Shown here one piece after another: positions 15,163-37,865 of a DNA stretch of 57,585 nt. Position 1 is the stretch's first letter; the number at the start of each line of letters is the position of its first letter. The translations under genes and the position numbers were made by a program. This stretch comes from a virus. The notes beneath the pieces were generated by a model, which had not been told where the DNA came from, ran no database searches, and saw only the letters and a list, made by a program, of their open reading frames with translations. Location of the stretch: the IMG/VR virus record IMGVR_UViG_3300013099_000003, positions 1-57,585 of that record; one strand, given 5' to 3'.

Positions 15163-16771
15163 TTCCTGTTCGTCCCTTAGCTTCTGTGTAGCTAACCCTT
15201 TCGAGGGGCTGACCTCCTCTGGAGCCATCGGGGTAACAGGTGAATCCTCTAAGTCTTGGGGCAAACTCTGCCAAGACTTCGGCAAATGGCTGAACACTGT
15301 CCTCACAATTCCCATCGGTTCCCCATGCTGGAAGGTTAATAGTTGAACTGATAGCATGATCAACGAAGTCCTGCATGTCAGCTTGGAACTCTATACGTCT
15401 CTTCGGCTCCTTAGCTAAATCTACTGCCGTCTCTATGCTCTCCGGGTCTAGGTTGTGCTTCTGTATGAGACCCTCTGCTGTACTATCTATGACGTACTCG
15501 TACTTCCAATCAGTCCCATCCACCAGATACCTTCTCTTATAGGCAACCGAATAGAGTGGCTCGATTCCCGTAGTTGTTCCAGCAAGGATACCAATAGTTC
15601 CTGTTGGGGCAATAGCTCGGTAGCCCTTAGGACGGTTAAGATAGAGTCTATCGCAATGTTCATTTGCTGATCTTTCGGATTCCTCTTCGTAGGCATACAT
15701 CCACTCCTTCAGCTCATCGTTCATTCCATACTTGTAGCCCCGCTTCAGTAACCATTCATGGACACCCATGAGGCCTACACCTATCCTCCGATTCTCCTCC
15801 CGTACTTGCTCCACTTTCTTATAAGGGAGATCTGCACGGACTGAACCACATACGAGGAACTTAGCTCCCAAGGATACTACCTCACGGAATTCCTCTATAG
15901 TCTCCACGTTAGCCATATTGACTGCACCTAGATTACAGCAGTCACTGTCATCCTCACTGGTAATCTCACAACAGGCATTCCTCAATGTCTCTAGAGACTT
16001 CCTTCCGAAGTTAAAGGAGAACCCGGGCTCACCAGTTCTCATAGCATTCATTACGTTATGCAGATAGATATCAGGTAGCACCCCATCATCCACTCTCTCT
16101 AGGAAGCTGTCGTCGTAGTTCAGAGATATGTTTGTCATATCTAAGGGAGCACGAAAGTTAAAGTCGGCTCTCTTCAGATCACCATAGGTCAGCCCCTTCC
16201 TTATCTCCATGGCATCCCAATCCTTAGCATTGATCCAATCCCAAGCATCATCATGAGACCACAACAGGGAGCCGTATATGGCACTCCTACGGCTTCCACC
16301 CTGCATTACGTTCTGCCCTATACCATTCACTAGTTCGGCCAGTGAGAGGGGCCCTGAGGCTACTCCTCCGGTTCTCCTGATTGGTCTCCCCTTCCCTCTT
16401 AGTATGCTGTAGTCTACGCCTATGCCACCACCCGTCATCAAGCAGCTCGTACTCCTTTGTGCTAATGCTGCCCACTCCTCTCTAGTATCCTCTTCAGCCT
16501 TCAGGCAGAAACAGTTATTGAAGAAGTGGGCATTCCTCCCAGCATAATAGATGTACCGTCCACCGGGCATCCACTTCATCTGAGTCATGAGGGATACTAG
16601 CTCTGACTGATCAGACTGAGAGAGTAGTCTCCTTCTTCTACCATTCATCTCACCTACTACATCCTCAGCTATAGTCCTACATCTCTCTGGCCACGTATCT
16701 GTCTGAGTCAGGGCATACTTATTGTAAAAAACATTACGGGCAATGACGTTTCTAAAGTTATGTTCAATCAT
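15104..16771 (-). CDS. ribonucleotide reductase, probably class II (adenosylcobalamin-dependent) type
   Basis: NACCEI...CCNLGAVNM (active-site N-x-C-x-E and downstream Cys), GGGIGVDYS, APTGTIGILAGTTTGIEP, and a C-terminal Cys pair. The class is inferred: no NrdB gene is present and there is no glycyl-radical C-terminus. Confidence 0.8.
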   Translation of the reverse strand: MIEHNFRNVIARNVFYNKYALTQTDTWPERCRTIAEDVVGEMNGRRRRLLSQSDQSELVSLMTQMKWMPGGRYIYYAGRNAHFFNNCFCLKAEEDTREEWAALAQRSTSCLMTGGGIGVDYSILRGKGRPIRRTGGVASGPLSLAELVNGIGQNVMQGGSRRSAIYGSLLWSHDDAWDWINAKDWDAMEIRKGLTYGDLKRADFNFRAPLDMTNISLNYDDSFLERVDDGVLPDIYLHNVMNAMRTGEPGFSFNFGRKSLETLRNACCEITSEDDSDCCNLGAVNMANVETIEEFREVVSLGAKFLVCGSVRADLPYKKVEQVREENRRIGVGLMGVHEWLLKRGYKYGMNDELKEWMYAYEEESERSANEHCDRLYLNRPKGYRAIAPTGTIGILAGTTTGIEPLYSVAYKRRYLVDGTDWKYEYVIDSTAEGLIQKHNLDPESIETAVDLAKEPKRRIEFQADMQDFVDHAISSTINLPAWGTDGNCEDSVQPFAEVLAEFAPRLRGFTCYPDGSRGGQPLERVSYTEAKGRTGNVYTESHDVCEITGGGSCG

Positions 16772-17120
16772 ATTGACTACCTTTGTGCAAAGTCTTATGG
16801 CAATTAGAGCAGATGAGTATGCACTTATCTACCTCTGCCTGTTGCTTCTTATATGCCATAGTTGAATGACAACCACCTAGTTGGAAACTCTTGGAAGTAG
16901 GCTCTGTATGGTGGAAGTCAAAGCACTCTGGTCTATCAAGATCATTGAACCCACAGACACTACATTCTCCTCCTTTGTACTCTACTAGCCGTAACTTCCG
17001 TCTCCTACCTACCATCAACTGCCTCTCTGCTGCACACCTCATACATCGAGAGGCTCCATGCTTCTTGTTGACATAGTAGAGGGTGATCCCATGCTGAGGG
17101 CATTCTCTTAACTTATACAT
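16764..17120 (-). CDS. HNH endonuclease
   Basis: CSVCGF...FDFHHTEP...CSNCHKTLH (Cys4 plus His-Asn-His-type motif). Confidence 0.75.
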   Translation of the reverse strand: MYKLRECPQHGITLYYVNKKHGASRCMRCAAERQLMVGRRRKLRLVEYKGGECSVCGFNDLDRPECFDFHHTEPTSKSFQLGGCHSTMAYKKQQAEVDKCILICSNCHKTLHKGSQYD

Positions 17121-17323
17121 TATGGAAGCTGTGCTCTATCATCCTGTCCTCTCTTATACATCTTAGCTAACTCCTCATTCAACTGTAGACCACCGATGTC
17201 TATAGTCCCTAGGGAGCCATCATTATTCTTACGGCCATTCCTGTAGTGGTAATGGGCCTTCCGGTACGTGATGAGCTCCCGAATATCATCAGGCAGCCCA
17301 TCAAAGGTTGGTGTCTCTATCAT
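17120..17323 (-). CDS. hypothetical protein, 67 aa
   Basis: ORF track; start/stop overlaps with neighbours. Confidence 0.55.
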   Translation of the reverse strand: MIETPTFDGLPDDIRELITYRKAHYHYRNGRKNNDGSLGTIDIGGLQLNEELAKMYKRGQDDRAQLP

Positions 17324-17492
17324 TCTTCCCCTCCTCGTATGCCCTATCTAGCATCTTTATCATCTTCAAGGATACTCCCTTGCATCCCTCTGGGTTCTGC
17401 TTAGAGAACCAACATCTATAACTAGAGACGGCCACACCCTCCACTGAGAAAAGGTATGGCCCATCCAAGATTATTCTTTCCGTTTCATTCAT
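17301..17492 (-). CDS. hypothetical protein, 63 aa
   Basis: ORF track; ATGA-type coupling with the upstream gene. Confidence 0.55.
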   Translation of the reverse strand: MNETERIILDGPYLFSVEGVAVSSYRCWFSKQNPEGCKGVSLKMIKMLDRAYEEGKNDRDTNL

Positions 17493-17740
17493 AATAAGGA
17501 CTCCAGATCCTTCAAGGCCCTGTCAGCTAAGTCTCTCTGAATGGAGTGGATTACGTGCCTAGTAATTGCCATAGCTAATGGTGGATCTTCAGAGAATGAC
17601 CTATCTAATTTAATGAGACACTCTCGATCCTTAACCACTAACTTCAGGACATCTGAGCCACCCTGCTTACCTAGAGAGGCCACAGCATCATCATGACCTG
17701 TAGCCCTCTCTATACATCTTAACATCTCATTGGTAATCAT
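17489..17740 (-). CDS. hypothetical protein, 83 aa
   Basis: ORF track; 4-nt overlaps at both ends. Confidence 0.6.
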   Translation of the reverse strand: MITNEMLRCIERATGHDDAVASLGKQGGSDVLKLVVKDRECLIKLDRSFSEDPPLAMAITRHVIHSIQRDLADRALKDLESLL

Positions 17741-17982
17741 AAGATCTCATCCAGAATCTTACATGCCTTCATCAACTTCTTAGAAGAGGAGAACTTCAGA
17801 TAGGTATAATCTGTTGTACTGTCCAAGTACAGCTCTAAAGAGAATACCATCTTATCCTTCTCAGGCTTCCTCTTACCACTCTTCCAGTCTCTTCCCTTCT
17901 CCTTATGAGATGTCATCTTGTATCCAATGATGAAATCATCACGAACCTTCAGTACACCACGGTTATGTTCTAAGACTACCAT
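17737..17982 (-). CDS. hypothetical protein, 81 aa
   Basis: ORF track. Confidence 0.6.
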   Translation of the reverse strand: MVVLEHNRGVLKVRDDFIIGYKMTSHKEKGRDWKSGKRKPEKDKMVFSLELYLDSTTDYTYLKFSSSKKLMKACKILDEIL

Positions 17983-18113
17983 ACTAATTTCCTCCCGATC
18001 TTATGATTACAGATTGGACAACAAAGGATTGCTGGTACATCCTTCCCTAATCCCTTCCAATACTTAAAGGTACTTCTCCAATACTCTATACACTCTGGAC
18101 ACCTGAAGCTCAT
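17976..18113 (-). CDS. zinc-ribbon mini-protein, 45 aa (below the ORF-track cutoff)
   Basis: My own translation: MSFRCPECIEYWRSTFKYWKGLGKDVPAILCCPICNHKIGRKLVW. SD gagg lies about 8 nt upstream and the stop overlaps the next start. Confidence 0.5.
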   Translation of the reverse strand: MSFRCPECIEYWRSTFKYWKGLGKDVPAILCCPICNHKIGRKLVW

Positions 18114-18148
18114 ACCTACTGCCTCGGCCTCCCAATCCTCTTCCTTAC

Positions 18149-18388
18149 TCAATAGATTTTCCTCCCGGCCTTGAAGTTTTCCTGATCTCCATAGTGAGTA
18201 CTGTATCCATCTTCAGCCCACCCTACATCTCCTTCCTTACCTAGCCGGAACCCTCCCTTATTTCCTATAGACTTCTGTAGTACACCACCACAGCCCGGGC
18301 AGTCATGCCTCGTATCCCTCTGCTCCACTGTATGCTGGTGCTCTTCTTCATGGCCACAGCTCCTACACTGATAACTGTATATTGGCAT
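18149..18388 (-). CDS. FmdB-family zinc-ribbon protein
   Basis: MPIYSYQCRSCGHEEE...CPGCGG is the classic FmdB N-terminus. The start is moved to this Met, which removes the overlap with the upstream gene. Confidence 0.65.
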   Translation of the reverse strand: MPIYSYQCRSCGHEEEHQHTVEQRDTRHDCPGCGGVLQKSIGNKGGFRLGKEGDVGWAEDGYSTHYGDQENFKAGRKIY

Positions 18389-18389
18389 C

Positions 18390-18638
18390 CTACACCTCCT
18401 CATACGTCTTTAGGAAGATCTCCTCTTTGCAGGGGTACAATTCCCCCTCGATCCCCCTGATTATATAGTCTCCATTATCAACCCTCATGTCACCCTCTAG
18501 GGTCTGGATGTATACACCATCACTGCCATTGTAGAGTATTCCACCCTCTCTAGCCTCGAAGAGCCACTTAGCCCTCATGATATCACCATAGATACATTGT
18601 TCAGCCTCTACTACTATTGGTCTCTTACGATATCTCAT
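18390..18638 (-). CDS. hypothetical protein, 82 aa
   Basis: ORF track. Confidence 0.6.
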   Translation of the reverse strand: MRYRKRPIVVEAEQCIYGDIMRAKWLFEAREGGILYNGSDGVYIQTLEGDMRVDNGDYIIRGIEGELYPCKEEIFLKTYEEV

Positions 18639-18837
18639 TCACTCTCCCCTTCTGGTACGCTAAACCTCTGCCCTTCCGGAACTTACTTGCTTGTCTCCTA
18701 TTAGGCTCTATACCTACAGCCTTACAGGCCTTTATGAATGCAGGGGAAGATAGTACACCAGTATTCTTAGCCTCTGCCTCTAGTCTCCATGGGTTAACAT
18801 CAGGCCCACTCCTTGGATATCTCTTCTTCATTGCCAC
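18625..18837 (-). CDS. hypothetical basic protein, 70 aa
   Basis: ORF track. Confidence 0.55.
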   Translation of the reverse strand: MAMKKRYPRSGPDVNPWRLEAEAKNTGVLSSPAFIKACKAVGIEPNRRQASKFRKGRGLAYQKGRVNEIS

Positions 18838-19094
18838 ATCTCATCCTTTGGTTCTGGGTTACAGAAAATGGTTAATGTATGGTACTCCTTAGAGTGTGCC
18901 ATCTTCTCCATGTGGGGACAGAAGATCGTATCATCACCTAGCTTCTCTATACAGTATGTCCTATCACATTCAGGGACACATACATTACCTTCATCTACGA
19001 ATCCTAGCCCTACGTTCAGGGAGAACTGACGATAGCCACAGTTCTCACAGGTGTTACCATCCATTAGGCAGTCACAGCTTGGGCATTGTTCCAT
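18828..19094 (-). CDS. Cys-rich zinc-ribbon protein, 88 aa
   Basis: MEQCPSCDCLMDGNTCENCG... Confidence 0.6.
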   Translation of the reverse strand: MEQCPSCDCLMDGNTCENCGYRQFSLNVGLGFVDEGNVCVPECDRTYCIEKLGDDTIFCPHMEKMAHSKEYHTLTIFCNPEPKDEMWQ

Positions 19095-19549
19095 AGTACA
19101 CTCCTTACATGGTTCACCTGATTCATACAGTCATCCAAGGCATTATGAGAGTTCTTCTTCTCCATCTTCTTGAATTCATCTAGAGTCCTACAATCCCTCT
19201 CCATCCAGTAAGGGAAGGGGTAGCACCCAGCATCCCGAAGAACAGCAGCATCCATGGAGCCTCTACTCCAGACCTTCTTGATATCATATACTCTTTGGAG
19301 TTCCTTCATCACCTCATTAAGAATCTGTATGGAACCAATGGCTCCAAAGAAGACCTTCCAGTTTCTGCCCTGCTTCTTATGCCAATCCAGTGTGTCTCTA
19401 GAGACAGTTCGGCCATCCACTATCTGCTGGTGCCACCCAAGGTTCATCTCCATAGTCTCTATGTTCTTCTTCCGATTGAATATGACGACACCCACTTGAA
19501 GTATCAAGGCAGTAGCTTTAGTATCCAGAGTCTCTATATCGATCATCAT
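19064..19549 (-). CDS. DEDD-type 3'-5' exonuclease
   Basis: MMIDIETLD (Exo I) ... HNALDDC (Exo III). Start set at the ATG with SD aaggaag, 10 nt after the dUTPase stop. Confidence 0.7.
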   Translation of the reverse strand: MMIDIETLDTKATALILQVGVVIFNRKKNIETMEMNLGWHQQIVDGRTVSRDTLDWHKKQGRNWKVFFGAIGSIQILNEVMKELQRVYDIKKVWSRGSMDAAVLRDAGCYPFPYWMERDCRTLDEFKKMEKKNSHNALDDCMNQVNHVRSVLWNNAQAVTA

Positions 19550-19559
19550 ATGTACTTCC

Positions 19560-19973
19560 TTATTTCCCTGTTGAGCCATACCCATTATCTCCTCTCTCTG
19601 TTCTTCTCAGTTCTTCTACTTCCTCAAAGGTGTGGTGGTTAACACTTACGAATACTATCTGAGCTATCCAATCACCATCCTCAATACGGATGAAGTGCTC
19701 AGGATCATTATTGTAGAGTGTCACATAGATCTCTCCGATGTAATCAGAATCTATCCTACCATATGCTTGTATGCCCTGCTTGGTATTCATCCCGGATCTA
19801 TGAGAGATAGTCCCGGCTTCCCCTCGTGGTACTTCCATATGGATTCCTGTTGGAACCTTAGCATGGCAACCCGGTCTAATGATTAGGGTCTTGGTACTCG
19901 CAAGATCATAACCACATGATCCCTTGGTAGCATGTCGTGGCCTCTTAGCACCCGGCTTAACTATTATCTTCAT
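19560..19973 (-). CDS. dut: dUTP diphosphatase
   Basis: GSCGYDL, RSGMNTKQG, IDSDYIGE, ERGDNGYGSTGK; ATGA overlap with the upstream stop. Confidence 0.9.
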   Translation of the reverse strand: MKIIVKPGAKRPRHATKGSCGYDLASTKTLIIRPGCHAKVPTGIHMEVPRGEAGTISHRSGMNTKQGIQAYGRIDSDYIGEIYVTLYNNDPEHFIRIEDGDWIAQIVFVSVNHHTFEEVEELRRTERGDNGYGSTGK

Positions 19974-20239
19974 ACGATCTCCCAATCATCAGCTAACAGA
20001 TCTGACTGAGATGCTACCCACATCTGGAAGGAACCATCAACACATCTTAGTTGTAGATAAGGTTGTACTGCTACAAGATCTCCATCATGCAACCCATGGA
20101 CTGCTCTCGTCTGCTTGTTAGCTATGATCCCATCAGGGTATCCGGGCTGATAAGCTACATACATTCCCCTCCCATTCCATCCTGCCCTAGCAACGTGGCA
20201 GCCACCCTTAGCCATTTCTATAGCTTCACTTATATCCAT
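19970..20239 (-). CDS. DUF2829-family protein (the family that includes the Thoeris anti-defence protein Tad2)
   Basis: MDISEAIEMAKGGCHVARAGWNGRGMYV...SQSDLLADDWEIV matches the DUF2829 pattern (EA...K.G..V.R.GWNGKG ... D.LAEDW). Confidence 0.65.
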   Translation of the reverse strand: MDISEAIEMAKGGCHVARAGWNGRGMYVAYQPGYPDGIIANKQTRAVHGLHDGDLVAVQPYLQLRCVDGSFQMWVASQSDLLADDWEIV

Positions 20240-20424
20240 TATCTTCTCTGCTCCTTCTCTAAGTTGTATGCTATCTGCTCCTTCAGCTCAGCTCTCCTAG
20301 AATCTGTCAGACCATTATGCAATTCAGCTAGTAACATGAGGAACTCATCCCCGGTCAAGGAGACCACTACGGTCCCTTGACCCGGACCAAATACCTCAAG
20401 TACTGGCTCGTCTCCATGTGTCAC
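20239..20424 (-). CDS. hypothetical protein, 61 aa
   Basis: ORF track. Confidence 0.5.
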   Translation of the reverse strand: MTHGDEPVLEVFGPGQGTVVVSLTGDEFLMLLAELHNGLTDSRRAELKEQIAYNLEKEQRR

Positions 20425-20449
20425 CCTTATAGTTGCGAATGTAGTTGTC

Positions 20450-20896
20450 TTAATGGGACACCTCCAGATATCTTACTGCCTTCATTACAGACTCCGCTGT
20501 ATCTCCTAGTAATCCAATAGCACTATTACATGACCAACACAATAGTCCTCTTACCTTCCCTGTGATATGGTCATGATCTACTGCTAAGGATACTCCTGAA
20601 GGATTCCCACAGATAGCACAGCTCCCTCCTTGTTCTTCAAACATAGTCTCATACTCCTCCAATGTAATCTTATATAATCTCCTGTATCGGAGATCTCTTT
20701 GTGTACGTCTGTAAGAGTCCTTACTTCTCACTGACCTCTCATTGAAGCATATGATACACATGCCTCGCCTACCATCAGGCATCTCCTTCTGCTTGTGGTA
20801 CTCACTAAATATCTTATGTGATCCACAGATATTACAAGTCTTACTTCCCTGCCTAATATCCTCAGCTACTTCTACGGCACTCCTTCGTACCCTCAT
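20450..20896 (-). CDS. recombination endonuclease VII
   Basis: CAICGNPSGVSLAVDHDHITGKVRGLLCWSCNSAIG is the Endonuclease_7 signature. Confidence 0.85.
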   Translation of the reverse strand: MRVRRSAVEVAEDIRQGSKTCNICGSHKIFSEYHKQKEMPDGRRGMCIICFNERSVRSKDSYRRTQRDLRYRRLYKITLEEYETMFEEQGGSCAICGNPSGVSLAVDHDHITGKVRGLLCWSCNSAIGLLGDTAESVMKAVRYLEVSH

Positions 20897-21267
20897 CAGT
20901 ATTCTAACTGAAGCAACAGCTTTGCATAATGAATTACCTTCTCCACATCCTCTCTTCCGTTCTTATTCTCATGACGGCTGATGTACTTCACGATGTTACC
21001 CTCACACCAACCCATCTTATTCCTCTGGATATACTCAGTGGGCTGGATGGCCATACTCTTGTAATGCTGGCCACCTACTTGGTCATCCATTGGATTACCT
21101 AGGACAGCATCGTCCACCCTAGGATCAACATCCTCTTCCCAATGTGTATCTCCCCTGTACCCTACGGCACCACAGGAGGGACACTTAGGTCCCGACACTG
21201 CCATGTTGTAGACATAGTTGCAGTTCTTACATTCTCTATACACTGGATTAATATTAACGAATGTCAT
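20896..21267 (-). CDS. DUF3310-family protein with N-terminal zinc ribbon
   Basis: GGQHYKSMAIQPTEYI...GNIVKYISRHENKNGREDVEKVIHYAKLLL. ATG 21267 has SD gggagg 8 nt upstream. Confidence 0.65.
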   Translation of the reverse strand: MTFVNINPVYRECKNCNYVYNMAVSGPKCPSCGAVGYRGDTHWEEDVDPRVDDAVLGNPMDDQVGGQHYKSMAIQPTEYIQRNKMGWCEGNIVKYISRHENKNGREDVEKVIHYAKLLLQLEY

Positions 21268-22030
21268 CGAAGGTACCTCCCTCACTCAGTAGTTGAGCTA
21301 ATGGTTTGTCTCTAGAGACAGCCTTTGGGACAGTACAACAGGGGCCTACTGATCCATAAGGTAATACACGACTACACTTAGGACATCTATTAGGCTTCAG
21401 GTAGTAATGCCTCACTGCCTCCATGGTATCCTCAGCCATTCCCTCGACCTCATGTTCCTTGAAGGGCTGACGGAACTCACAGGATGCTATGTTCTTATTG
21501 TAGAACTGGTAGTAACCCTCGTCCGTGAGGGCCTCCAGAACATTCTCCTCTACCATCAGGAATATCTCAGATAGGTGCAAGTCTAACTTATCCTTACACA
21601 TCCTCTCGATCTGGAAGTAGAACATGTGGGCACCTTGGGCCTTAACGTCAGCCGTTAAGTCCCTGCTGGAACCACAGTACTCCTTCCATCCTGAGTACTT
21701 CCATGCCTTCTCATCCCACTTAGGACTCTCCAGATCACAGCACTTGTACCCAGCAGGAGGCCCATCCCAATGATAGAACTGTTTACTGCCTATATACATC
21801 TTACCTGTTACCTTATGGGTAATCCGGTAGATGAATCCAAAGTATGGCCCATCAATCAAGCCGTACCAGTGGTGGCCATTCTTAGCTACAGCTAAGGCAT
21901 ACTCTGCTTCCTCCTTAGTATCATACCGACCTACGTTCTTCTTCCTTTGGCCATCCCAATAGTAGGTACGATATCTTCCTGAGGGAGTCAGGTACACACT
22001 CTCAGGGATCTCCTTATTCTTCTTTCTCAT
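21254..22030 (-). CDS. GIY-YIG-type homing-endonuclease-like protein with AP2-like N-terminal domain
   Basis: FIYRITHKVTGKMYIGS (GIY-9aa-YIG spacing). N-terminal SGRYRTYYWDGQRKKNVGRYDTKEEAEYA resembles AP2-type DNA-binding modules. Confidence 0.5.
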   Translation of the reverse strand: MRKKNKEIPESVYLTPSGRYRTYYWDGQRKKNVGRYDTKEEAEYALAVAKNGHHWYGLIDGPYFGFIYRITHKVTGKMYIGSKQFYHWDGPPAGYKCCDLESPKWDEKAWKYSGWKEYCGSSRDLTADVKAQGAHMFYFQIERMCKDKLDLHLSEIFLMVEENVLEALTDEGYYQFYNKNIASCEFRQPFKEHEVEGMAEDTMEAVRHYYLKPNRCPKCSRVLPYGSVGPCCTVPKAVSRDKPLAQLLSEGGTFDDIR

Positions 22031-22325
22031 CTTTCTCCATCCGTATTAAGGCAGTTGTGGCTATTGCCATTACAGTCAGTGTGAACTCATGATAGCTTGT
22101 GGCTGGTACATTAGTACCTGAGCCAGCAGCTAAGGCTATAAGAGTGAAGGCTCCAAAGTAAGCTCCAGCTGCGAAGGCGGGATCATTACTCGCTGCTATT
22201 ACCTCACCACCTACAGGACTTATCTTCTTCATCATTTCAACAATGCGCTGTCCTCTCTCGTCCTTATCAGTGGACTTGAGGATCTCCCTCACCTCATTCT
22301 GCAGATCACCTATGTTCTTATCCAT
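22014..22325 (-). CDS. hypothetical protein, 103 aa, hydrophobic C-terminal half
   Basis: ORF track. Confidence 0.6.
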   Translation of the reverse strand: MDKNIGDLQNEVREILKSTDKDERGQRIVEMMKKISPVGGEVIAASNDPAFAAGAYFGAFTLIALAAGSGTNVPATSYHEFTLTVMAIATTALIRMEKDEKEE

Positions 22326-22758
22326 TCCTCTTCTTTGCTCCTCTCTTAGCCTTTCTCTTATCTATGATCTTACGAGTCTTCTTCAGTTTGATATGGGTAT
22401 ACTCCTTGCCCTTATCTACGATATACTTGTGGATAACTATGGTTACTATCTGCCTATCATTGAACCCATAGTACTCTGAGATACAGTCCTCTATACCTTT
22501 CACGCTATTACTAGCATCACTTAAGGGAGAACTGAAGCCTACCTCCAGCTCCATCACAAGGTTGCCTGTGAGGGACACCGGAGTACTATAGTTATCATCC
22601 AAGAACTGAAGGACTTGCTTCCGATAGTTCTTATATACGTAGGAACGTACCTTCCTTCCGGAGTACAGCTTGTTGGTACTGATAGCCTTGATAGGTATCT
22701 TAAGGTGTAGGCTCCTCTTTACCCTAGTCTTCTTGGGACTTCCATTACCGGTTGGCAT
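22318..22758 (-). CDS. possible RusA-like Holliday-junction resolvase (weak)
   Basis: AISTNKLYSGR...SDASNSVKGIEDCI loosely resembles RusA motifs. Start trimmed to MPTGNGS to limit the overlap. Confidence 0.35.
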   Translation of the reverse strand: MPTGNGSPKKTRVKRSLHLKIPIKAISTNKLYSGRKVRSYVYKNYRKQVLQFLDDNYSTPVSLTGNLVMELEVGFSSPLSDASNSVKGIEDCISEYYGFNDRQIVTIVIHKYIVDKGKEYTHIKLKKTRKIIDKRKAKRGAKKRNG

Positions 22759-23638
22759 GATCCTCCTGTGTAGGTGCTTCCCATCCATCATCCTCTGAAC
22801 GGAGTAGGTAAAGTAGTCTCGCATGAACCCTTACGGTAGCAATCATACGGCTCTGGAAATCCTCTTGGGTTTCCCCTTCCTCTGGCTTATGTCTCTGTAG
22901 GTACTCCTTCAGTACCACACAGTACATCATGAAGGGGCTATGAACATCCTTCAGTAACTTCTTAGCAGTAACTGCCCCAACCCCTTTGATTCCGGGGATA
23001 CCATCCGTAGCATCTCCTGTTAACATCTGGCTATATAGACTCCTATTTCCCTGCTCCTCAGTCACCTCCGAGAAGATCTTCTTGACAAAGTTGAAGTGGT
23101 GCCCGGGAACTTGGAGGAGATCCTTATCAATCGAACAGATCACGGTATCCTCTCCTTGGCCCATAGCCATCATGTCGTCAGCTTCGAGGAGACCGGGCTT
23201 ACTCTTGGCACCATACTTACTCACTAGGTAATCCTTCATGGCATTAAGGTGGTGAGGTCTCCGAAGATCCTTCCGGTTACTCTTGTATTCAGGGAACTCT
23301 TGCTCCCGGAAAGAACCCTCTATACTTAGGAAGAACTGTAGGGATATCTTACATCCATAGTGTTCCTCACAATCCATCTTGATACCATGCACTATCTTAG
23401 TGATTAAGTACTTAGCATTCTTCTCAGGCTCTGGGTCAAACTCTAGATCTAAGGTACAGGGAAAACCCTCCGTCTCTAGAGACTTCTTCAGGATGTCTGC
23501 ATCCTTCTTATACTCTTCAAAGAGGGTGACTGCTTGGCCCTCTCTCATATACCTAAGAGCATACTGCCTTCCATCACAGACAGCAGCAGCTCTATAGGCT
23601 ACGATGTCTCCATCTATCAGGAGAACCTTAGAAGTCAT
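22745..23638 (-). CDS. 5'-3' exonuclease / flap endonuclease (T7 gp6 / PolI 5' nuclease family)
   Basis: LLIDGDIVAYRAA, EADDMMA, SIDKDLLQV, TGDATDGIPGIKGVGAVTAKKLL. Confidence 0.85.
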   Translation of the reverse strand: MTSKVLLIDGDIVAYRAAAVCDGRQYALRYMREGQAVTLFEEYKKDADILKKSLETEGFPCTLDLEFDPEPEKNAKYLITKIVHGIKMDCEEHYGCKISLQFFLSIEGSFREQEFPEYKSNRKDLRRPHHLNAMKDYLVSKYGAKSKPGLLEADDMMAMGQGEDTVICSIDKDLLQVPGHHFNFVKKIFSEVTEEQGNRSLYSQMLTGDATDGIPGIKGVGAVTAKKLLKDVHSPFMMYCVVLKEYLQRHKPEEGETQEDFQSRMIATVRVHARLLYLLRSEDDGWEAPTQEDHANR

Positions 23639-24125
23639 TGGTGTCTCCAGAGACATCATCAAATCCACCGAACTCTACTCCATCAACCACCTGAACTCCG
23701 TCGAGGTATGCTGAGAGAATCCATGTGCCCTTGATGGGCCATGCCTTAGCACTCAGATTCAGGTTGCAAATAGAACCATTACCTATTTGCTCAGTGTGGG
23801 GAGTCCGACCATCTGCCCCGACTACCTGAGGTGGCTTGTTCTCTACACCTTTAGCAGTCCGTACCTTCTTTGTGACCTTGAAGAGATTCTTAATTACTGT
23901 GCCATCCTTCAGAGTCTTATCATTCACAGCGAACCCAAGCTTCTTCAGCTCACCAGCTAAGCCATCCTCAAGATGACAATCAACTGACCACTTATGTTCA
24001 AACTTAGTATCTGGCTCATGAACCTTAGCCCAGAAGACCTTGATGTTAGTCAGCTTGAACTTCACGTAACCATCAGCATACTTCTGATCAATGTTGATAC
24101 CATCTTTAGTTAAATTCTCAGCCAT
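23628..24125 (-). CDS. ssDNA-binding protein, T7 gp2.5-like
   Basis: Size, position between polymerase and nuclease genes, and an acidic C-terminal tail ending in Phe (GGFDDVSGDTNDF), as in gp2.5. Confidence 0.6.
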   Translation of the reverse strand: MAENLTKDGINIDQKYADGYVKFKLTNIKVFWAKVHEPDTKFEHKWSVDCHLEDGLAGELKKLGFAVNDKTLKDGTVIKNLFKVTKKVRTAKGVENKPPQVVGADGRTPHTEQIGNGSICNLNLSAKAWPIKGTWILSAYLDGVQVVDGVEFGGFDDVSGDTNDF

Positions 24126-30582: not shown

Positions 30583-30745
30583 TCTTCTCCTCCGTCCACT
30601 CTGATTCATGATCATCACCCATATCCCAAGGACATCTATCCGGGATATCTACTGATCGGTTATTAGTTAGCTTAACTACAAGGTAGCACTCATCCCCGGC
30701 ACAGTCCCTATAGCATCTAAAGACCTGTACCTCTTCCTTACTCAT
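30575..30745 (-). CDS. Cys-containing mini-protein, 56 aa (below the ORF-track cutoff)
   Basis: My own translation: MSKEEVQVFRCYRDCAGDECYLVVKLTNNRSVDIPDRCPWDMGDDHESEWTEEKNE. ATGA overlap with the upstream gene. Confidence 0.5.
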   Translation of the reverse strand: MSKEEVQVFRCYRDCAGDECYLVVKLTNNRSVDIPDRCPWDMGDDHESEWTEEKNE

Positions 30746-30942
30746 ATCAATTCTCCCCCTCGTTTACAATCAGGGCACACCATGTAATAGTGGGTATACT
30801 CAGGGCCTACATGAACAGGATGCTTCTTCAGTGCTACGATGGAAGTCTCTAGAGACATATCTTCCCTAGCTACCAACTCATTACAGATGAAGCAGATGGG
30901 TGTCACTCGATCTAGTATGTCCTTCTTCTTTTCCTCTCTCAT
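30742..30942 (-). CDS. zinc-ribbon protein, 66 aa
   Basis: CFICNE ... CPDCKRG. Confidence 0.6.
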   Translation of the reverse strand: MREEKKKDILDRVTPICFICNELVAREDMSLETSIVALKKHPVHVGPEYTHYYMVCPDCKRGGELI

Positions 30943-31481: not shown

Positions 31482-31731
31482 CTTCTATCACCTCCTCAAT
31501 ATAAAAGGCAAAGAAGTGATTGCTCTTGGCATAACTATCCCGGACATCAGTGAAGAAGTTCTCCATGTACTCAAGGTCTACGTGACCATCCAGAATCTCA
31601 TCAATCTCAAGGATTACAGTAAGTTCATTACCATTCCACTTTGTAATCTTCTCCATGAAGGCAAGGTTAACACTTTCTAATTCTTCCAAGGGTTTCTTGT
31701 CACCTGTTAGTACTGCTAAATACTTACTCAT
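31474..31731 (-). CDS. hypothetical acidic protein, 85 aa
   Basis: ORF track. Confidence 0.6.
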   Translation of the reverse strand: MSKYLAVLTGDKKPLEELESVNLAFMEKITKWNGNELTVILEIDEILDGHVDLEYMENFFTDVRDSYAKSNHFFAFYIEEVIEDA

Positions 31732-32917
31732 AGTTTCTCTCCGTACAGTTTGTAATGTGCCGGGGTAATCCCCTCTTCGTGTATTCTCTGAACTCTAATG
31801 TCCAGAGGGTTCCTATGTATTTCTCAGGCTTATAGTAGTACCTCTCCCAGATCTGTGCTCTCTCTTCCTTACTCTTGTTAGGTACATAGAGGAAGGTATC
31901 ACCTACCTTATCACAAGTGAACTCGAACTTAGCAAGAGAGCCATACTTATCATCCTGATCTGATACCATAGCAGATAAACGGTACTCATTATGGATAATG
32001 TCCTTGACCTTCAGGATACCATAGCTCCTGCTATCCCACTCATAAGGACAATCCAAGGCATGTACTACGGCACCATCCATACCATCCATCTCCTTCAGGA
32101 TAGCAAAGGAATCTAGTACCTGCTCAGCACTCTGCACTACAGCCATAGGTGATACCTTCAGGTACTTATAGTTACCCTCATTAATCTTCCGGATAACAGG
32201 GGCCATCCTCTCAGCATAGTTATCTTCCTCACAGGGATGCTCGAAGATGTAGAAGTATACCTTACCACGCCCTGCCTTGACTGCTGAGACTATATCCTCC
32301 AGCTCCATCATGTCATTCCACAATTCACCATGGACATCCAAGCCTAACTGCCTCAATTCCCTCTGGATGTACTCCAGCTTCTCAAAGGGATTCCTCTTCC
32401 GGCTCATCAGGATATCCTTAGCCTCTAGGTATACACCACAGATACCATTCATCTTACCCATGATGATGGCCGGGTAACTCATCTTCTCTTGATGAAGATC
32501 CCAATGGTGTAGCAGCATGGGCTCCCTAAGAGGCTGATCCTTAGAGTCTCTAGAGACAGCCCAACCATCCCTCTCTTTCTTCTTCGTCCACTTCGAGAGG
32601 ATTCTCTCCTGCATTACCGTAGAGAATGCCTTAGAGTTCATCATCTTCAAGGGAGTACGGTACATACGAGGGCTACCTGCTCCCTCCATCATCTCAATGG
32701 CTGAACATAAGATAGCCCCATCACCTACCTCTAGCCAGAATAACATCTTCTGCCACTGTCCCTTCTTGTTCTGCTTATACAGGGGCGGACAACTTGGTGT
32801 CTCTAGAGCCACGGTGCTGTCCCCCTCTATCCGGAAGGAACAGTTACAGAACTCAAGAGTATCCTCACTCTCGGTCTCCACTGCTCCTATACTCTTACCA
32901 TTCCATATGAAATCCAT
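31724..32917 (-). CDS. ATP-dependent DNA ligase-like nucleotidyltransferase
   Basis: GKMNGI (motif I with Asn replacing the usual Asp of KxDG), HGELW (motif III), DGAVVHA (motif IV), GILKVKD (motif V). Start at ATG 32917 with SD gggagg. Confidence 0.55.
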   Translation of the reverse strand: MDFIWNGKSIGAVETESEDTLEFCNCSFRIEGDSTVALETPSCPPLYKQNKKGQWQKMLFWLEVGDGAILCSAIEMMEGAGSPRMYRTPLKMMNSKAFSTVMQERILSKWTKKKERDGWAVSRDSKDQPLREPMLLHHWDLHQEKMSYPAIIMGKMNGICGVYLEAKDILMSRKRNPFEKLEYIQRELRQLGLDVHGELWNDMMELEDIVSAVKAGRGKVYFYIFEHPCEEDNYAERMAPVIRKINEGNYKYLKVSPMAVVQSAEQVLDSFAILKEMDGMDGAVVHALDCPYEWDSRSYGILKVKDIIHNEYRLSAMVSDQDDKYGSLAKFEFTCDKVGDTFLYVPNKSKEERAQIWERYYYKPEKYIGTLWTLEFREYTKRGLPRHITNCTERNYE

Positions 32918-33102
32918 CAGTCGTCCTCCCATATCACATGGTGAGGAATGAAGACTGCCTGATAGTCCTCACCACAACCATCACACATCATCAGGAAATA
33001 AGCTGAGTCATTATCAGGGTCAGCCTGTGAATCATTCCAGTAGGTGTCCTCACTACCACACCGAGGACAGGTCTGGATCTCTTTAGTTATCTTCTCTTTC
33101 AT
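32917..33102 (-). CDS. zinc-ribbon protein, 61 aa
   Basis: CPRCGS ... CDGCGE. Confidence 0.6.
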   Translation of the reverse strand: MKEKITKEIQTCPRCGSEDTYWNDSQADPDNDSAYFLMMCDGCGEDYQAVFIPHHVIWEDD

Positions 33103-33110
33103 TGTGCCTC

Positions 33111-34274: not shown

Positions 34275-34283
34275 TGTACTCTC

Positions 34284-36200
34284 CTACTTCAGAATGTTCT
34301 TCTTCAGGAGACCCAGCAGGACTCCCTCCAATTCGGTCAGCTCATTGATGACCTTTGACTCACTATAATAATGAGTGATGTTGTGGGTCTGTATGCCTAC
34401 CCCAATGATATGCATCAGGCCACTATCTTCTATACTCTTCACGGTATCTACGAGGAACTGTTCATCATCTCCTCTGCCATATGCTGGGTTCCCATCACTC
34501 AGCACGATCAGTATCTTATTCTTCTCGGGTCTCCTTGCGAGAACCTGAGCAGCGGCAGTGACTGCCTCACCATCTGCATTGCATCCCATATAAATCTTAC
34601 CGTTACCATATCTATCAATCAGCTTGTCTCTAGAGACATACCGTTCCTCAAAGTGTTTCATGATGTAATGAGCACGGCCACGGCCCCCTGTGCTGAACTG
34701 CATCATGCTATGTGGTATCTTTAAGGTCTGCATGACCTCACTCATGGCTATCTGGCAGCTGGCTGAAGTATAGTACCTCTCATTGCTCATGCTACCAGAG
34801 ACATCACCCAGCATAAAGAGTGCAGTATCCTGTTCAATCTTAGCGGTTAACCTCTGCTTAAAGATACGGGGCTGGTTGTGTCCCGCATAGATACGGCTGA
34901 CTGACTTGGAGCAGAGCTTACCTCTCTTCATACCATACTGATACCCTATTTGGGATACTGATATGAGATACTTCTTCACCTTCTTACTGAGAGTGAAGGT
35001 TCCTAAGGTTTTCTTGATACCCTCACCATAGGCACAGTTATTAACCTGCCACTTAGTTACATCGAACTCCTCCAGATCATTACTCCTTGGTTGGTATGGA
35101 GTCCGGGGCTCTCTTGCAGATAGCTCTGTGGTACTCTCAATGGGCTTCTGAGTGAGGCCCATATTCTCCAGCATAGTACCACCTTGGCCAGCACCTACAC
35201 TATTATCTGGTGTGCCAGCAGCCGACTGTTGGTCTCCATCGTCTCCCTCAGGGTTATCACTGCGTTGTTCCTCTCCTGTGTCATCGTCTTCACCTTCCAC
35301 TTCAGGGTCTCGTTGACTCTCAGGAGATTGTCCCTCTCCGTCTTCACTATCTTCAGTATCCTCAGGAGATCCTTCTCCTTCTCCTTGTTGTTCTTCATCC
35401 TCAGATTCGGGGGAGCTGTCTTCACCTGATTGGCCACTGCCTCCATCATCTCCTTCTCCAGCCTCATTATCGTCTTGGCTTGAGTCATCAGTGCTTCCCG
35501 GATCTCCTTCTCCTCCACCTCCAGATCCTCCACCCTTCCCGTCAGATCCATCAGATCCATCTCCATCGTCGCCTTCTCCATCTCCTTCCTCCGGTGGTGG
35601 TGGAGGCTCATGCTCCACCCTATGTAGTAAAGTTCTTAGGTCATCCTCTGTCTCTAGAGACAACCACTCTTCATCAATGAACTGGAGCCGACGTACCTCC
35701 TCCTCCAGTTCATCAGGACATTCACAGTGCTCGTAGCCCTGCCATTCATTCCTCATCTCATTGCCTATGAACATCATAGCAGCAAGAGTAGGATTAACCT
35801 TAGTCATCTCATCCACGATATGAGGCACTCCACCAGCAGCCTGTACTGTACGGCTATATGAGTCCGAGAGTATCCTATCTCTTCCCTCATATTCTCCGTG
35901 CATATGGTACTCAGTCCTCTGAGCTTGGATGAAGTCCTTCGCCACTGCCTGAAGGCTATCAGGTTCTAGCTCTACCTTATGGAAGAAGGACATATCCTTA
36001 GTCTGCTTACTGATCTCCTGATGGAGTGAACCCATGTACTCATCATGATTGTAGATACTCGGGACTCCGATGTGGATATTCCCTCGCTTATCACTGATAG
36101 GTGTGGAAGCTCCTTCTGACTGCTTAACAGTGATGCCTTCTGATCTGGCCACAGCCTTAGCGAACTTGGTACTCTCTTCGATCCCGAATATATCCGTCAT
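34284..36200 (-). CDS. cobT: CobT-like protein with central poly-acidic tract and C-terminal VWA domain
   Basis: Long D/E/G/S tract (about 35200-35600) and MIDAS-like GDVSGSM in the C-terminal domain. Confidence 0.65.
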   Translation of the reverse strand: MTDIFGIEESTKFAKAVARSEGITVKQSEGASTPISDKRGNIHIGVPSIYNHDEYMGSLHQEISKQTKDMSFFHKVELEPDSLQAVAKDFIQAQRTEYHMHGEYEGRDRILSDSYSRTVQAAGGVPHIVDEMTKVNPTLAAMMFIGNEMRNEWQGYEHCECPDELEEEVRRLQFIDEEWLSLETEDDLRTLLHRVEHEPPPPPEEGDGEGDDGDGSDGSDGKGGGSGGGGEGDPGSTDDSSQDDNEAGEGDDGGSGQSGEDSSPESEDEEQQGEGEGSPEDTEDSEDGEGQSPESQRDPEVEGEDDDTGEEQRSDNPEGDDGDQQSAAGTPDNSVGAGQGGTMLENMGLTQKPIESTTELSAREPRTPYQPRSNDLEEFDVTKWQVNNCAYGEGIKKTLGTFTLSKKVKKYLISVSQIGYQYGMKRGKLCSKSVSRIYAGHNQPRIFKQRLTAKIEQDTALFMLGDVSGSMSNERYYTSASCQIAMSEVMQTLKIPHSMMQFSTGGRGRAHYIMKHFEERYVSRDKLIDRYGNGKIYMGCNADGEAVTAAAQVLARRPEKNKILIVLSDGNPAYGRGDDEQFLVDTVKSIEDSGLMHIIGVGIQTHNITHYYSESKVINELTELEGVLLGLLKKNILK

Positions 36201-36203
36201 GAT

Positions 36204-36383: not shown

Positions 36384-36562
36384 TACTTTCTCCTCATTGA
36401 TACGAGGGGACTTCCGAAGACTGCATTAACAATCTTATTGACTCCAAAGGCTACCCATATGAGTCCACCAAGAGTCAGGATTACCTGAATTGGCATGAGG
36501 TAGAACCCAACTGACATACATACGATGCCCAGCAGTACACTCTTAATGAATTGTCTGTCCAC
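36383..36562 (-). CDS. small two-TM membrane protein, about 59 aa, probable GTG start
   Basis: SD gggagg lies 6 nt before GTG 36562. The tracked longer ORF overlaps the upstream gene by 110 nt. Confidence 0.45.
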   Translation of the reverse strand: MDRQFIKSVLLGIVCMSVGFYLMPIQVILTLGGLIWVAFGVNKIVNAVFGSPLVSMRRK

Positions 36563-36794
36563 CTTCGGCCTCCCTCTCTCGGAACATCTTATCCAGTAGC
36601 ATGATTGCTCGGACTGCCATACCTTCCTCATCTGTAAGCTCCAGTCCATCCTCACTGGCTGTCTTTAAACACTTAGCTTGGAGTGTCTCTAGAGACTTAA
36701 TGGCATCCTCTGGTTTATCCTCCTTATCCTCAAGAAGCATCTCACATATCAGTGCCAGTGTTCTCTTGTTCTCTACATCGACTTCCCATTTCAT
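36543..36794 (-). CDS. hypothetical acidic protein, 83 aa
   Basis: Trimmed to MKWEVDVENK; ATGA overlap and SD ggaggag. Confidence 0.6.
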   Translation of the reverse strand: MKWEVDVENKRTLALICEMLLEDKEDKPEDAIKSLETLQAKCLKTASEDGLELTDEEGMAVRAIMLLDKMFREREAEGGQTIH

Positions 36795-37042
36795 GATTTC
36801 TCCTCCATTATTCTTCTTATGACTTCCATGATGGCCATGAGGGCAGCTTGACACTCATATGTCTCTATCTTCACGGTATCCTTACTTGCCTTCTCGATTG
36901 CTTCGGTCAATTCTACAAGAGCATCCAAGGCAGACTGGTCCTCTACTGCCTCAGTCTCAATGATCTTCAGGATTACCTTCAGAATCATCTCTTGTAGTTG
37001 TGTATTAATTGGATAATCTACTGGTTTATTTAAGCGCATCAA
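36791..37042 (-). CDS. hypothetical protein, 83 aa
   Basis: ORF track. Confidence 0.6.
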   Translation of the reverse strand: MMRLNKPVDYPINTQLQEMILKVILKIIETEAVEDQSALDALVELTEAIEKASKDTVKIETYECQAALMAIMEVIRRIMEEKS

Positions 37043-37181
37043 AGTCTCCCATTGCTAAGGCTACACAGTTCCAATAGGAAGGCTTCAGTCCCATCTTACG
37101 GAGCTTCCGCTTCAATGACCGGCCTTCCTTCACATTTAACTCCTGTCCTAAGCTATTCCTTAGGAATTTCCTCTCGTTCAT
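37026..37181 (-). CDS. basic mini-protein, 51 aa
   Basis: Trimmed to MNERKFLRNS with SD ggaggagaagg. Confidence 0.45.
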   Translation of the reverse strand: MNERKFLRNSLGQELNVKEGRSLKRKLRKMGLKPSYWNCVALAMGDFDALK

Positions 37182-37320
37182 CCTTCTCCTCCGGTAATAT
37201 TGAGCCATAGAGTACAGCACAGAAGACTACTATAGCAATTAAGAATATGGTTCCCGCTACTCCAGTTGGTATCATCCCCATAGGGCTACACATCTCACCC
37301 ATCAAGGCTATCCCTAGCAT
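37153..37320 (-). CDS. possible TM mini-protein, 55 aa
   Basis: My own translation: MLGIALMGEMCSPMGMIPTGVAGTIFLIAIVVFCAVLYGSILPEEKDEREEIPKE. Confidence 0.4.
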   Translation of the reverse strand: MLGIALMGEMCSPMGMIPTGVAGTIFLIAIVVFCAVLYGSILPEEKDEREEIPKE

Positions 37321-37865
37321 CCCTTCACCTCCTTTTGTGCTTCTACTACACAGCCCCTACACTTTTCATCCAGTAACAGTAGAACATCCTCAGGAACCGG
37401 GCAGCTATCTTGGATCTCGAAGATCTGTATCCTATGGAAGACTGAGGTATCAATCATAAGGGTGTCTACAATATCCGGATCAATATTCAGTCGATGTCTA
37501 TTGCCATGTCCATTAGCATCACTCATGAATTGCTCAAGCATATCATTATCATCCGGACTGAAGGGAGCATGGAGACTGTATGTAATACCAGTGAATGCCT
37601 GTATCAGTTGCTCACCCACCCATTCAGGCCAGATGGTAGTATTAAGGTACACCTTAGCTCCTTGATCCTTGAGGTACGTGGCTATCTCTAAGGTATATCC
37701 GGGGTACAGGAGAGGCTCACCACCTGTTAGTGTTACCCTCTCATACTTTAGGAGATCCTTTCGGTTCCGGCATGTCTCTAGAGACTCCTTAGTTCCCTCA
37801 TGCTTATTACAGCAGTACCAGCAGTCTCTCGGACAGCTCTCCGTTATGAGTACCCTAGCATCCAT
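37314..37865 (-). CDS. small radical SAM protein (NrdG/QueE-like activase size class)
   Basis: CPRDCWYC (CxxxCxxC cluster motif) and VTLTGGEPLL. Confidence 0.75.
   Translation of the reverse strand: MDARVLITESCPRDCWYCCNKHEGTKESLETCRNRKDLLKYERVTLTGGEPLLYPGYTLEIATYLKDQGAKVYLNTTIWPEWVGEQLIQAFTGITYSLHAPFSPDDNDMLEQFMSDANGHGNRHRLNIDPDIVDTLMIDTSVFHRIQIFEIQDSCPVPEDVLLLLDEKCRGCVVEAQKEVKGC

Follow-up and report, generated by a model that had tools for sequence, protein, structure and literature searches.

The virus record IMGVR_UViG_3300013099_000003 from IMG/VR (57,585 nt, analysed over its whole length and referred to here as the window; all site coordinates are given on it) carries a 12-bp palindrome, GTCTCTAGAGAC, repeated through the genome. 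The 27 exact copies span 3144 to 55730 and compare with 0.02 expected from dinucleotide-preserving shuffles, an excess of approximately 1000-fold. Positions 1-123 of the window are identical to 57463-57585, and this 123-bp end overlap indicates a circular assembly and thus a complete phage genome of 57,462 bp. The genes are arranged in three strand blocks. The first (plus strand, 1-14.3 kb) contains a giant 2101-aa protein and tail/baseplate genes. The second (minus strand, 14.3-41.5 kb) holds the replication and early genes: ribonucleotide reductase, a 3′-5′ exonuclease and dUTPase; the nucleases Endo VII, RusA, GIY-YIG, HNH and FEN; an ECF-like sigma factor, a family-A DNA polymerase (PolA), a T7-type primase-helicase and a ligase-like protein; and CobS, CobT and a radical-SAM protein. 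The third (plus strand, 41.7-57.5 kb) encodes a TerS-like protein, terminase, portal, capsid and tail genes. The family labels of the reductase, exonuclease, GIY-YIG protein, FEN, PolA, primase-helicase, CobT and radical-SAM protein were borne out; the ligase label is weak. No close DNA relative was found among GenBank phages, nucleotide similarity being limited to one 263-bp patch. The nearest cultured phage by capsid is Rhizobium phage RHph_TM3_14A (41% identical), which has no iterated palindrome; identity of the major capsid protein to those of mycobacteriophages is only about 31%.

With coding status assigned from the strand-block gene map, 18 of the 27 copies lie wholly inside open reading frames (ORFs), ten reading VSRD and eight SLET, in exactly the proteins named by the original prediction. 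That prediction had placed the element at 15987-37785; the copies there are real, but only 12 of the 27 fall inside this interval. It had also observed that coding copies never use the one reading frame that contains TAG. This is true but trivial: TAG would end the ORF and the other two frames of a fixed 12-mer give fixed peptides, so the frame rule is a logical necessity and not evidence.

Loci compared with the window are designated below by handles beginning with L. On the minus strand, six of the VSRD copies are found in an Rv2179c-like 3′-5′ exonuclease (site 19394-19405, gene 19064-19585, TVSRDT), the SegE-like GIY-YIG protein (21308-21319, gene 21254-22030, AVSRDK), the DNA polymerase (25919-25930, gene 25394-27367, GVSRDI in motif B; exact orthologue in L022, CA-centre orthologue in L220), the primase-helicase (29502-29513, gene 28539-30221, KVSRDI), the 402-aa ligase-like ORF (32546-32557, ORF 31724-32932, AVSRDS) and the CobT-like protein (34626-34637, gene 34284-36200, YVSRDK; exact orthologue in L074). 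A seventh minus-strand copy lies in an ORF of 118/125 aa (39078-39089, ORF 38877-39254, DVSRDC). The plus-strand copies are in the TerS-like helix-turn-helix (HTH) protein (41871-41882, gene 41760-42557, EVSRDI; exact orthologues in L217 and L023), a 629-aa tail protein (51533-51544, gene 50267-52156, TVSRDL; exact orthologue in L061) and the ORF 55439-55957 (55730-55741, CVSRDN; exact orthologue in L023). SLET copies occur in the giant plus-strand ORF (3144-3155, ORF 1897-8202, KSLETQ) and, on the minus strand, in ribonucleotide reductase (15987-15998, gene 15104-16771, KSLETL), the FEN/5′-3′ exonuclease (23472-23483, gene 22745-23668, KSLETE), a 66-aa Zn-ribbon ORF (30845-30856, ORF 30742-30942, MSLETS), the CobT-like protein again (35650-35661, LSLETE; TG-centre orthologue in L045), a small ORF (36685-36696, ORF 36543-36854, KSLETL), the radical-SAM protein (37774-37785, gene 37314-37877, ESLETC) and a 50-aa mini-ORF (40270-40281, ORF 40218-40370, KSLETP). 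The last of these sites is conserved in L217 and lies 49 nt upstream of the ATG of gene 39490-40221. Only seven one-mismatch copies exist in the window, three of them of the CA/TG-centre type. These three functional-looking copies are at 23643-23654 in the FEN gene (GTCTC-CA-GAGAC, sense strand TG, MSLET), at 27606-27617 in a minus-strand metallophosphoesterase (27546-28241, sense strand TG, VSGD) and at 38188-38199 in the minus-strand ORF 38031-38408 (sense strand CA, SPET).

The nine non-coding copies (11400, 14331, 39274, 39425, 39449, 40711, 41277, 48938 and 48962) are 3.8-fold over the 8.7% non-coding fraction (P = 3e-4) and include two tandem pairs. The copy at 11400-11411 is intergenic; it abuts the TAA stop of 10059-11399 and ends 32 nt before an ATG at 11444. 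That at 14331-14342 is also intergenic, at the junction of the convergent plus and minus gene blocks. The copy at 39274-39285 lies 19 nt upstream of the ATG of 38877-39254 and forms a conserved island in L217, where its flanks are 47% identical. The first tandem pair, 39425-39460 (39425-39436 and 39449-39460, 12-bp spacer), is just downstream of gene 39490-40221, is conserved in L217 and folds as a 16-bp hairpin. Between it and the stop codon of that gene is a minus-strand stem-loop (39461-39480, CACCTAGG-AAAT-CCTAGGTG), the pairing of which is preserved in L217 through compensatory changes (CACCCAAG...CTTGGGTG). The copies at 40711-40722 and 41277-41288, both conserved in L217, are in a 1.3-kb non-coding region. 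The second tandem pair, 48938-48973 (48938-48949 and 48962-48973), lies between gene 48388-48894 and a tRNA-Met at 49230 and folds as a 17-bp hairpin.

Selection on DNA and the form of the site

Selection acts on the DNA and the peptides follow. VSRD occurs ten times in the proteome against 0.23 expected from amino-acid composition, and all ten are encoded as GTC TCT AGA GAC, which under phage codon usage has a chance of about 0.003 per peptide. Eight of the nine SLET peptides use the 12-mer and the ninth is a centre-variant copy. At the seven control-region sites shared with L217 (78% identical), 84 of 84 bases are the same as against 68% in the flanks. The identical codon strings and this conservation, together with lineages (below) in which a CG centre changes the encoded peptides to VSGD and SPET, support the interpretation in the original prediction that DNA-level selection dictates these residues, and answer its proposal to compare conservation at the site with that of surrounding sequence in relatives.

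That prediction also suggested alignment with homologues lacking the motif, as a means of telling recruitment of existing residues from insertion of four new ones. The result is recruitment. In relatives without a given site the aligned residues are similar or different, and ungapped: VARD in the primase (GTG GCT CGG GAT, in L074), TSRD or SSRE with other codons in the tail protein (position 51533, in L071 and L023), T-RD in CobT and TDRN in PolA. The alignments are ungapped at the PolA, primase, CobT, tail protein, TerS and sigma-factor sites. Gaps of 1-3 residues occur at a few sites, in indel-prone loops, and there is no clean 4-residue insertion at any site with alignable homologues. The more specific claim that the polymerase site was built onto existing conserved codons also holds. 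Across 113 homologues the PolA column is V-[S/D/T]-R-[D/N], free of indels, and VSRD itself is present in 26 of them. A distant PolA homologue, in L222, encodes VSRD as GTG TCT AGG GAT, and its 22-kb locus has no palindromes. The tolerance of the column and the different codons of L222 thus indicate a site built on a spot that the protein tolerated. Judged from these alignments, sites arise by point substitution at tolerant columns and not by 12-bp insertion.

Two readings in which the DNA is secondary, that the VSRD and SLET peptides are themselves selected or that the 12-mer is a mobile in-frame mini-insertion, were therefore rejected as very improbable. The tolerance of VSRD in 26 of 113 polymerases, the one homologue with different codons and the few sites in indel-prone loops would suit them. 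Against a protein-level motif, the codon string is identical in every copy, nine copies are non-coding, and the peptide becomes VSGD or SPET where the centre is CG. The ungapped alignments likewise argue against a miniature insertion.

The functional unit is larger than the 12-mer. The flanking base is A or T in 26 of 27 copies on one side and 27 of 27 on the other, the sole exception being the FEN site at 23472. This preference is not required by coding; the Thr codon after SLE, for example, is ACA or ACT in seven of eight copies and ACG once. The unit is thus the 14-bp dyad W-GTCTC-YR-GAGAC-W (W, A or T; Y, pyrimidine; R, purine). When the window is pooled with 22 loci that are related or bear the motif, the centres of GTCTC-NN-GAGAC are TA (99), CA (12), TG (9) and CG (1); no other centre was found, AT and GC never occurring, and the arms are always separated by 2 bp. 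Centre variants are often non-synonymous (SPET, VSGD). The asymmetric centres are balanced with respect to the sense strand (10 TG to 8 CA), which, with the strictness of the centre, argues for symmetric recognition of duplex DNA and not for RNA pairing. No positional signal beyond the ±1 flanks was detected within ±70 bp of 103 non-redundant sites, and half-sites outside palindromes are near the Markov expectation (GTCTC, 79 against 62; GAGAC, 71 against 67). The unit is therefore autonomous. Two 6-bp arms across a flexible YR step would be expected if a dimeric protein reads the site and bends or kinks it. A promoter or activator site of fixed geometry was considered and rejected, since nothing is conserved beyond ±1 and a sigma-70 scan of the control region gave matches at the level of shuffled sequence. 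A Chi-like or oriented half-site was rejected too, half-sites alone being barely enriched and showing no strand orientation.

An action at the level of RNA, in which the self-complementary 12-mers would pair within or between transcripts as processing or stability hairpins or as targets of a nuclease or small RNA, draws on the two tandem pairs. Both fold into hairpins of 16-17 bp with complementarity reaching beyond the 12-mers, the minimum free energies of the folded segments are -31 to -37 kcal/mol (z about -6), the hairpins stand at the 3′ ends of genes as does one pair in a genomic island described below, and variable spacing within pairs would be expected for loops. Most copies are single, however, and a single copy has no significant structure (z = -0.3). 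CA and TG centres break the self-complementarity yet keep conserved flanks; RNA pairing tolerates only the UG wobble, so that the balance between the two is not expected, and neither is the absence of the self-complementary AT and GC centres. Site 14331, moreover, sits between convergent blocks. We consider this explanation improbable.

The form of the site also bears on the idea that it is the target of a sequence-specific enzyme, whether a nicking or restriction-like endonuclease (making programmed interruptions, as in the nicked genomes of T5 type) or a DNA modifier. The near-perfect exactness of a symmetric 14-bp site with a strict YR centre is typical of dimeric nucleases, and some known type II specificities resemble its inner TC-NN-GA. 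Among the phage gene products are a radical-SAM enzyme and nucleases of the GIY-YIG, HNH, Endo VII and RusA types, and the even spacing described below would suit entry points for repair or replication. On the other side, no methyltransferase or restriction-type enzyme was found in scans of the phage ORFs, and the GIY-YIG protein belongs with the SegE-type homing enzymes, which read long asymmetric sites. Double-strand cutting at the palindrome would fragment the genome, phages normally avoid rather than accumulate restriction-type palindromes, and the site is present at regulatory-looking intergenic positions in host islands. An enzyme target is accordingly unlikely, while carrying more weight than an RNA-level role.

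Spacing, turnover and lineage-specific versions

The sites are distributed unevenly between modules and evenly within one. Twenty of the 27 copies are in the minus-strand replication/early block (P = 0.007), and seven of the 27 lie close together at 39.2-41.9 kb, around the non-coding stretch that separates the divergent blocks. Over 14.3-39.1 kb, neighbouring sites are 1.0-3.6 kb apart and spaced far more evenly than by chance, with a coefficient of variation (CV) of 0.44 (P = 0.001; minimum gap, P = 1e-4). This test on the window was post hoc and was for that reason repeated on relatives, where even spacing recurs in six loci: L220 (CV 0.24, P = 1e-4), L221 (P = 0.003), L074 (P = 0.007) and L076, L045 and L067 (each P < 0.05). 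Sites are about three times denser in the replication module, and the relatives share this bias, their replication loci having 0.64-0.76 sites/kb and their structural loci 0.1-0.3. Positions, in contrast, turn over: 17 of the relatives' sites fall inside alignments with window proteins and only six of these are shared with the window. Selection thus maintains density and spacing, not particular positions, which suggests that each site serves a cis-acting function over about 1-2 kb.

Such behaviour would also be expected of a cis-acting maintenance signal for replication, recombination or packaging, acting in bidirectional priming by the T7-type primase-helicase, in Chi-like protection or as multiple pac sites. 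The range-limited spacing of 1-2.5 kb resembles that of Okazaki fragments or Chi, and turnover with kept density is seen for Chi and uptake sequences. The motif starts with GTC, the T7 primase trinucleotide, on both strands, and the different motif of L222 has TGGTC on both strands. One site is inside the TerS-like gene, a frequent location of pac, and sites cluster at the GC-skew minimum. What speaks against this is that half-sites are neither enriched nor oriented, making the full palindrome the unit, when a primase needs only 3-5 nt. The threefold difference in density tracks gene class and not replication, the HTH of TerS does not covary with the motif, and the copies that adjoin an abortive-infection gene in host islands would have no explanation. 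We regard a maintenance signal as unlikely, and place it next to the enzyme target.

Neutral origin, as a by-product of mutational or repair bias or as a signature of the host genome with no function in the phage, was also weighed. HIP1 (GCGATCGC) of cyanobacteria is a precedent for an iterated palindrome spread throughout coding DNA: it is over-represented, conserved in ORFs beyond codon and peptide constraints, quasi-regular in distribution and with no known function (PMC5861425). The point-substitution origin of the present sites would be compatible with such a drive. It is hard to reconcile with the ~1000-fold excess, with islands of perfectly conserved site in diverged non-coding DNA, with even spacing in the window and again in the relatives' loci, with the acceptance of non-synonymous changes to keep the site, and with the lack of any cellular genome with many copies among the matches listed in the genome scan described below. 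A neutral origin therefore seems still less probable than action through RNA.

A search with PolA uncovered a large group of 50-62-kb genomes. In clade A, comprising the window, L217 and several IMG/VR contigs, the centre is TA. Clade B, at a greater distance (CobS 44-47% identical), has a mixture of TA, CA, TG and CG centres. In the sister genomes L220 and L221 (PolA 53-54% identical) the site is T-GTCTC-CG-GAGAC-A and the proteins carry VSGD and SPET; at PolA motif B, where the Arg is essential, this CG lineage has a CA centre and retains VSRD. A single column of the sigma factor reads VSRD from a TA centre (L022), VSRD from a CA centre (L221) and VSGD from a CG centre (L220). Two other loci have elements of their own. 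L223 (Ga0645780_04631; PolA 47%) lacks GTCTC-type sites and has ten copies of a quasi-palindrome, TTCC-CTCTAGAG-AGAA, from 1146 to 21096, all in ORFs (peptides SLE or SRE) and in both orientations; its central 8-mer is common with the window motif and the outer bases differ. L222 (Ga0452204_003588; PolA 43%) has seven copies of TGGTCG-ATAAC-CGACCA (at 154, 1228, 2136, 9546, 11849, 15366 and 20520), six of them between called genes and the seventh overlapping the last codons of one, with six of the seven in one orientation. The TGGTC in this element we take to be a T7-type primase word. Clade B keeps the motif even though its CobS is less similar to that of the window than are those of L223 and L222, so motif class does not simply track phage phylogeny.

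Several side observations concern the surroundings of the sites. The interval 40371-41759, about 1.3 kb without convincing genes between the divergent blocks, coincides with the minimum of the cumulative GC skew; its conservation in L217 is patchy, and it includes a conserved promoter-like TTGACA-17-TATAAC at 41564-41593. It is a candidate origin, control region or untranslated RNA. At the orthologue of site 40711 (L217rc, ~1930-1965) there are 22 extra bp ending in a second GAGAC (GTCTCTAGAGAC-tttctccgtctcatctt-GAGAC), an indel between direct GAGAC repeats adjoining the site. The tRNA-Met (CAT; 49230-49304, plus strand), the sole match to Rfam, is downstream of the capsid-side tandem pair, and a 115-aa ORF overlapping it (49229-49576) is probably spurious. 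Accessory genes at 19970-20239, 32917-33102, 38031-38408, 20450-20896 and 22318-22824 include those for a Tad2-like anti-Thoeris protein (recognised via a homologue in L223), a Lar-like zinc ribbon, a protein with a ribosomal L7/L12 C-terminal-like domain and two Holliday-junction resolvases, Endo VII and RusA, in one genome. The primase-helicase of L221 (7519-9696, 725 aa) contains a Hom_end_hint (intein-type) insertion, absent from its counterpart in the window. The giant 2101-aa protein was considered as a virion RNA polymerase and the idea was dropped, there being no PDB or Pfam match.

Candidate readers and the role of the array

Copies outside the phages are few. A scan of 185,579 genomes with the 14-mer gave, among the matches listed, mostly single chance matches, the exceptions being two Desulfobacterales islands with three and four copies. 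In Desulfopila aestuarii DSM 18488 three copies (L136, 1892-2972) flank an Abi_alpha/PDC-S47 defence-candidate gene; in a Desulfobacterales metagenome-assembled genome four copies (L137, 5429-5664) are in a non-coding stretch. These small islands are near tRNA-SeC and tRNA-Leu and have only a P4-like integrase in common; one island site has 20 nt in common with window site 39449. Three copies of the 12-mer with G/C flanks (L202, 1297-1410) also occur in IMG/VR 2911330653_000003, an unrelated integrative element of 66% GC, in a divergent promoter region, in and just upstream of a 146-aa gene and beside an XRE-like HTH gene. The 146-aa protein was tried as a model of a ribbon-helix-helix reader; Pfam does not confirm this and neither the window nor the islands encode a homologue. 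A metagenome scan for tandem pairs returned mostly unrelated satellite-type tandem repeats, and a literature search for the 12-mer only cloning primers.

The island and L202 copies look operator-like in their layout, and suggest a trans-acting factor that is host-encoded or supplied by an infecting phage. A host-encoded reader is slightly favoured over an unrecognised phage protein, because phages with proteins no more than 30-60% identical share exactly the same motif, because no conserved phage reader was found and because the motif is also present in unrelated host elements. The islands hint at, without proving, a host within Desulfobacterales.

The original prediction named no mechanism. 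Our preferred explanation, to which we assign a probability of roughly 0.45, is that the palindromes constitute a distributed operator array for a putative homodimeric sequence-specific DNA-binding protein. The 14-bp dyad would be a high-affinity recognition site in double-stranded DNA, each monomer reading one WGTCTC arm across the deformable central YR step. The phage family keeps about one site per 1-2.5 kb over the early/replication module, with fewer in the structural modules and a cluster in the control region that separates the divergent operons. Each site, once bound, would act on a limited length of DNA, and the array would most likely control the early/replication module genome-wide from many internal positions, either by blocking or silencing transcription, a role modelled on stoperators and KorB operators, or by compacting DNA. 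The genome is about 91% coding and the sites must therefore sit in ORFs. New sites appear by point substitution where a near-cognate peptide is tolerated (V-[SDT]-R-[DN], S-L-E-T), and selection then holds them, dragging the protein sequence along.

Several points weigh against an operator array. For the roadblock or silencing role the argument is one of analogy. Regulons of typical transcription factors consist of more degenerate sites, most of them intergenic, and a set of sites of which two-thirds are intragenic and almost all exact fits an enzyme too. The spacings of site pairs vary (22, 24, 25, 34, 35 and 45 bp), and hence there is no fixed cooperative geometry. Scans of essentially all phage ORFs against Pfam, PHROGs and NCBIfam found no repressor, ParB/KorB, ribbon-helix-helix or methyltransferase family; these library scans gave no restriction-type enzyme or integrase either, and a phage repressor or integrase of novel fold may have escaped them. 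Two named candidates were rejected by covariation, and a third found no support. The recognition helix of the sigma-like protein varies widely among lineages with an identical motif, and so does that of the TerS-like HTH protein, which counts equally against a pac site. Gene 39490-40221 is early, encodes 243 aa and is bracketed by sites, and a 25%-identical homologue adjoins a pair in L205; its AlphaFold model (predicted local distance difference test score 68) has no match to a PDB or DNA-binding fold and the family scans gave no hit for it.

The alternatives discussed above decrease in weight from an enzyme target through a replication, recombination or packaging signal and an RNA-level element to neutral mutational drive. 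A further possibility, speculative and about as unlikely as the first two of these, starts from the islands. The array could be the cis half of a phage-host signalling axis, the reader being either a phage-supplied protein or a host regulator that the ~30 sites of each replicating genome titrate. The Desulfobacterales islands would have placed the operator beside abortive-infection genes such that infection switches the defence on, and the phage could not discard sites that its own genome control needs.

Comparison with known systems shows that the description of the element as unusual for a phage was overstated. Cluster O mycobacteriophages such as Corndog have 34 copies of a 17-bp dyad repeat, 5′-TGTTCGGNNNCCGAACA (TGTTCGG-N3-CCGAACA), denser in one operon and one-third in ORFs, for which the authors predicted a dimeric binder and whose function is unexplained (PMC4351075). 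Both sets consist of dozens of invariant inverted repeats around a short variable centre, partly intragenic, spread through a lytic-looking genome, denser in one non-structural operon and not tied to promoters. Sequence and phage lineage are unrelated, however, the spacer lengths differ, and the intragenic share here is two-thirds. The stoperators of Cluster A mycobacteriophages (the L5 and TipsytheTRex repressor) comprise more than 20 high-fidelity sites genome-wide, in promoters and short intergenic gaps of temperate phages; they are asymmetric 13-mers read by a monomeric two-domain repressor and stop elongation away from promoters in an orientation-dependent manner (PMC9283540). The window resembles them in having more than 20 near-identical sites (27 exact and three centre-variant), and an elongation stop of this kind is a plausible model, by analogy, for an intragenic array. 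It differs in the perfect palindrome, the symmetric W flanks, the absence of sense-strand bias, the 18 of 27 copies inside ORFs and the lack of any repressor or integrase family in the library scans.

The operators of KorB and the parS sites of ParB are near-perfect palindromes of 13-16 bp, about a dozen per ~60-kb replicon, some intragenic or far from promoters, and are read by a dimer acting over kilobases. The present sites are likewise palindromic, several per replicon and in part intragenic; they are more numerous and more even, and no phage ORF matches the ParBc or KorB families. HIP1 is similar in being a palindrome selected inside ORFs, but it is only 8 bp long, belongs to cellular genomes and is tied to orphan methyltransferases (PMC5861425), whereas the site here is a 14-mer limited to a phage family and a few islands, and no methyltransferase family was found in the phage. 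Unlike with Chi or uptake sequences, no short asymmetric word is enriched with strand bias. The array thus belongs to none of the Cluster O repeats, stoperators or HIP1. What is new is the mainly intragenic placement, the even spacing replicated in relatives, the positional turnover, the lineage centre variants that rewrite residues of essential proteins, and the copies beside an abortive-infection gene in a genomic island of the candidate host clade.

The phage family offers a clean natural case of selection on DNA that overrides protein sequence. A non-coding signal dictates a four-residue stretch of the polymerase, the primase, the reductase, the ligase-like protein and structural proteins, and these residues switch with the centre of the signal between lineages (VSRD to VSGD, SLET to SPET). 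It is also a tractable example of the unexplained iterated palindromes, with graded relatives, lineage-specific motif variants and replicated even spacing, and the comparative evidence points to a range-limited, cis-acting function. The motif provides a compact marker for this uncultured phage group. If true, the link to the abortive-infection island would be a route by which defence islands detect a specific phage family.

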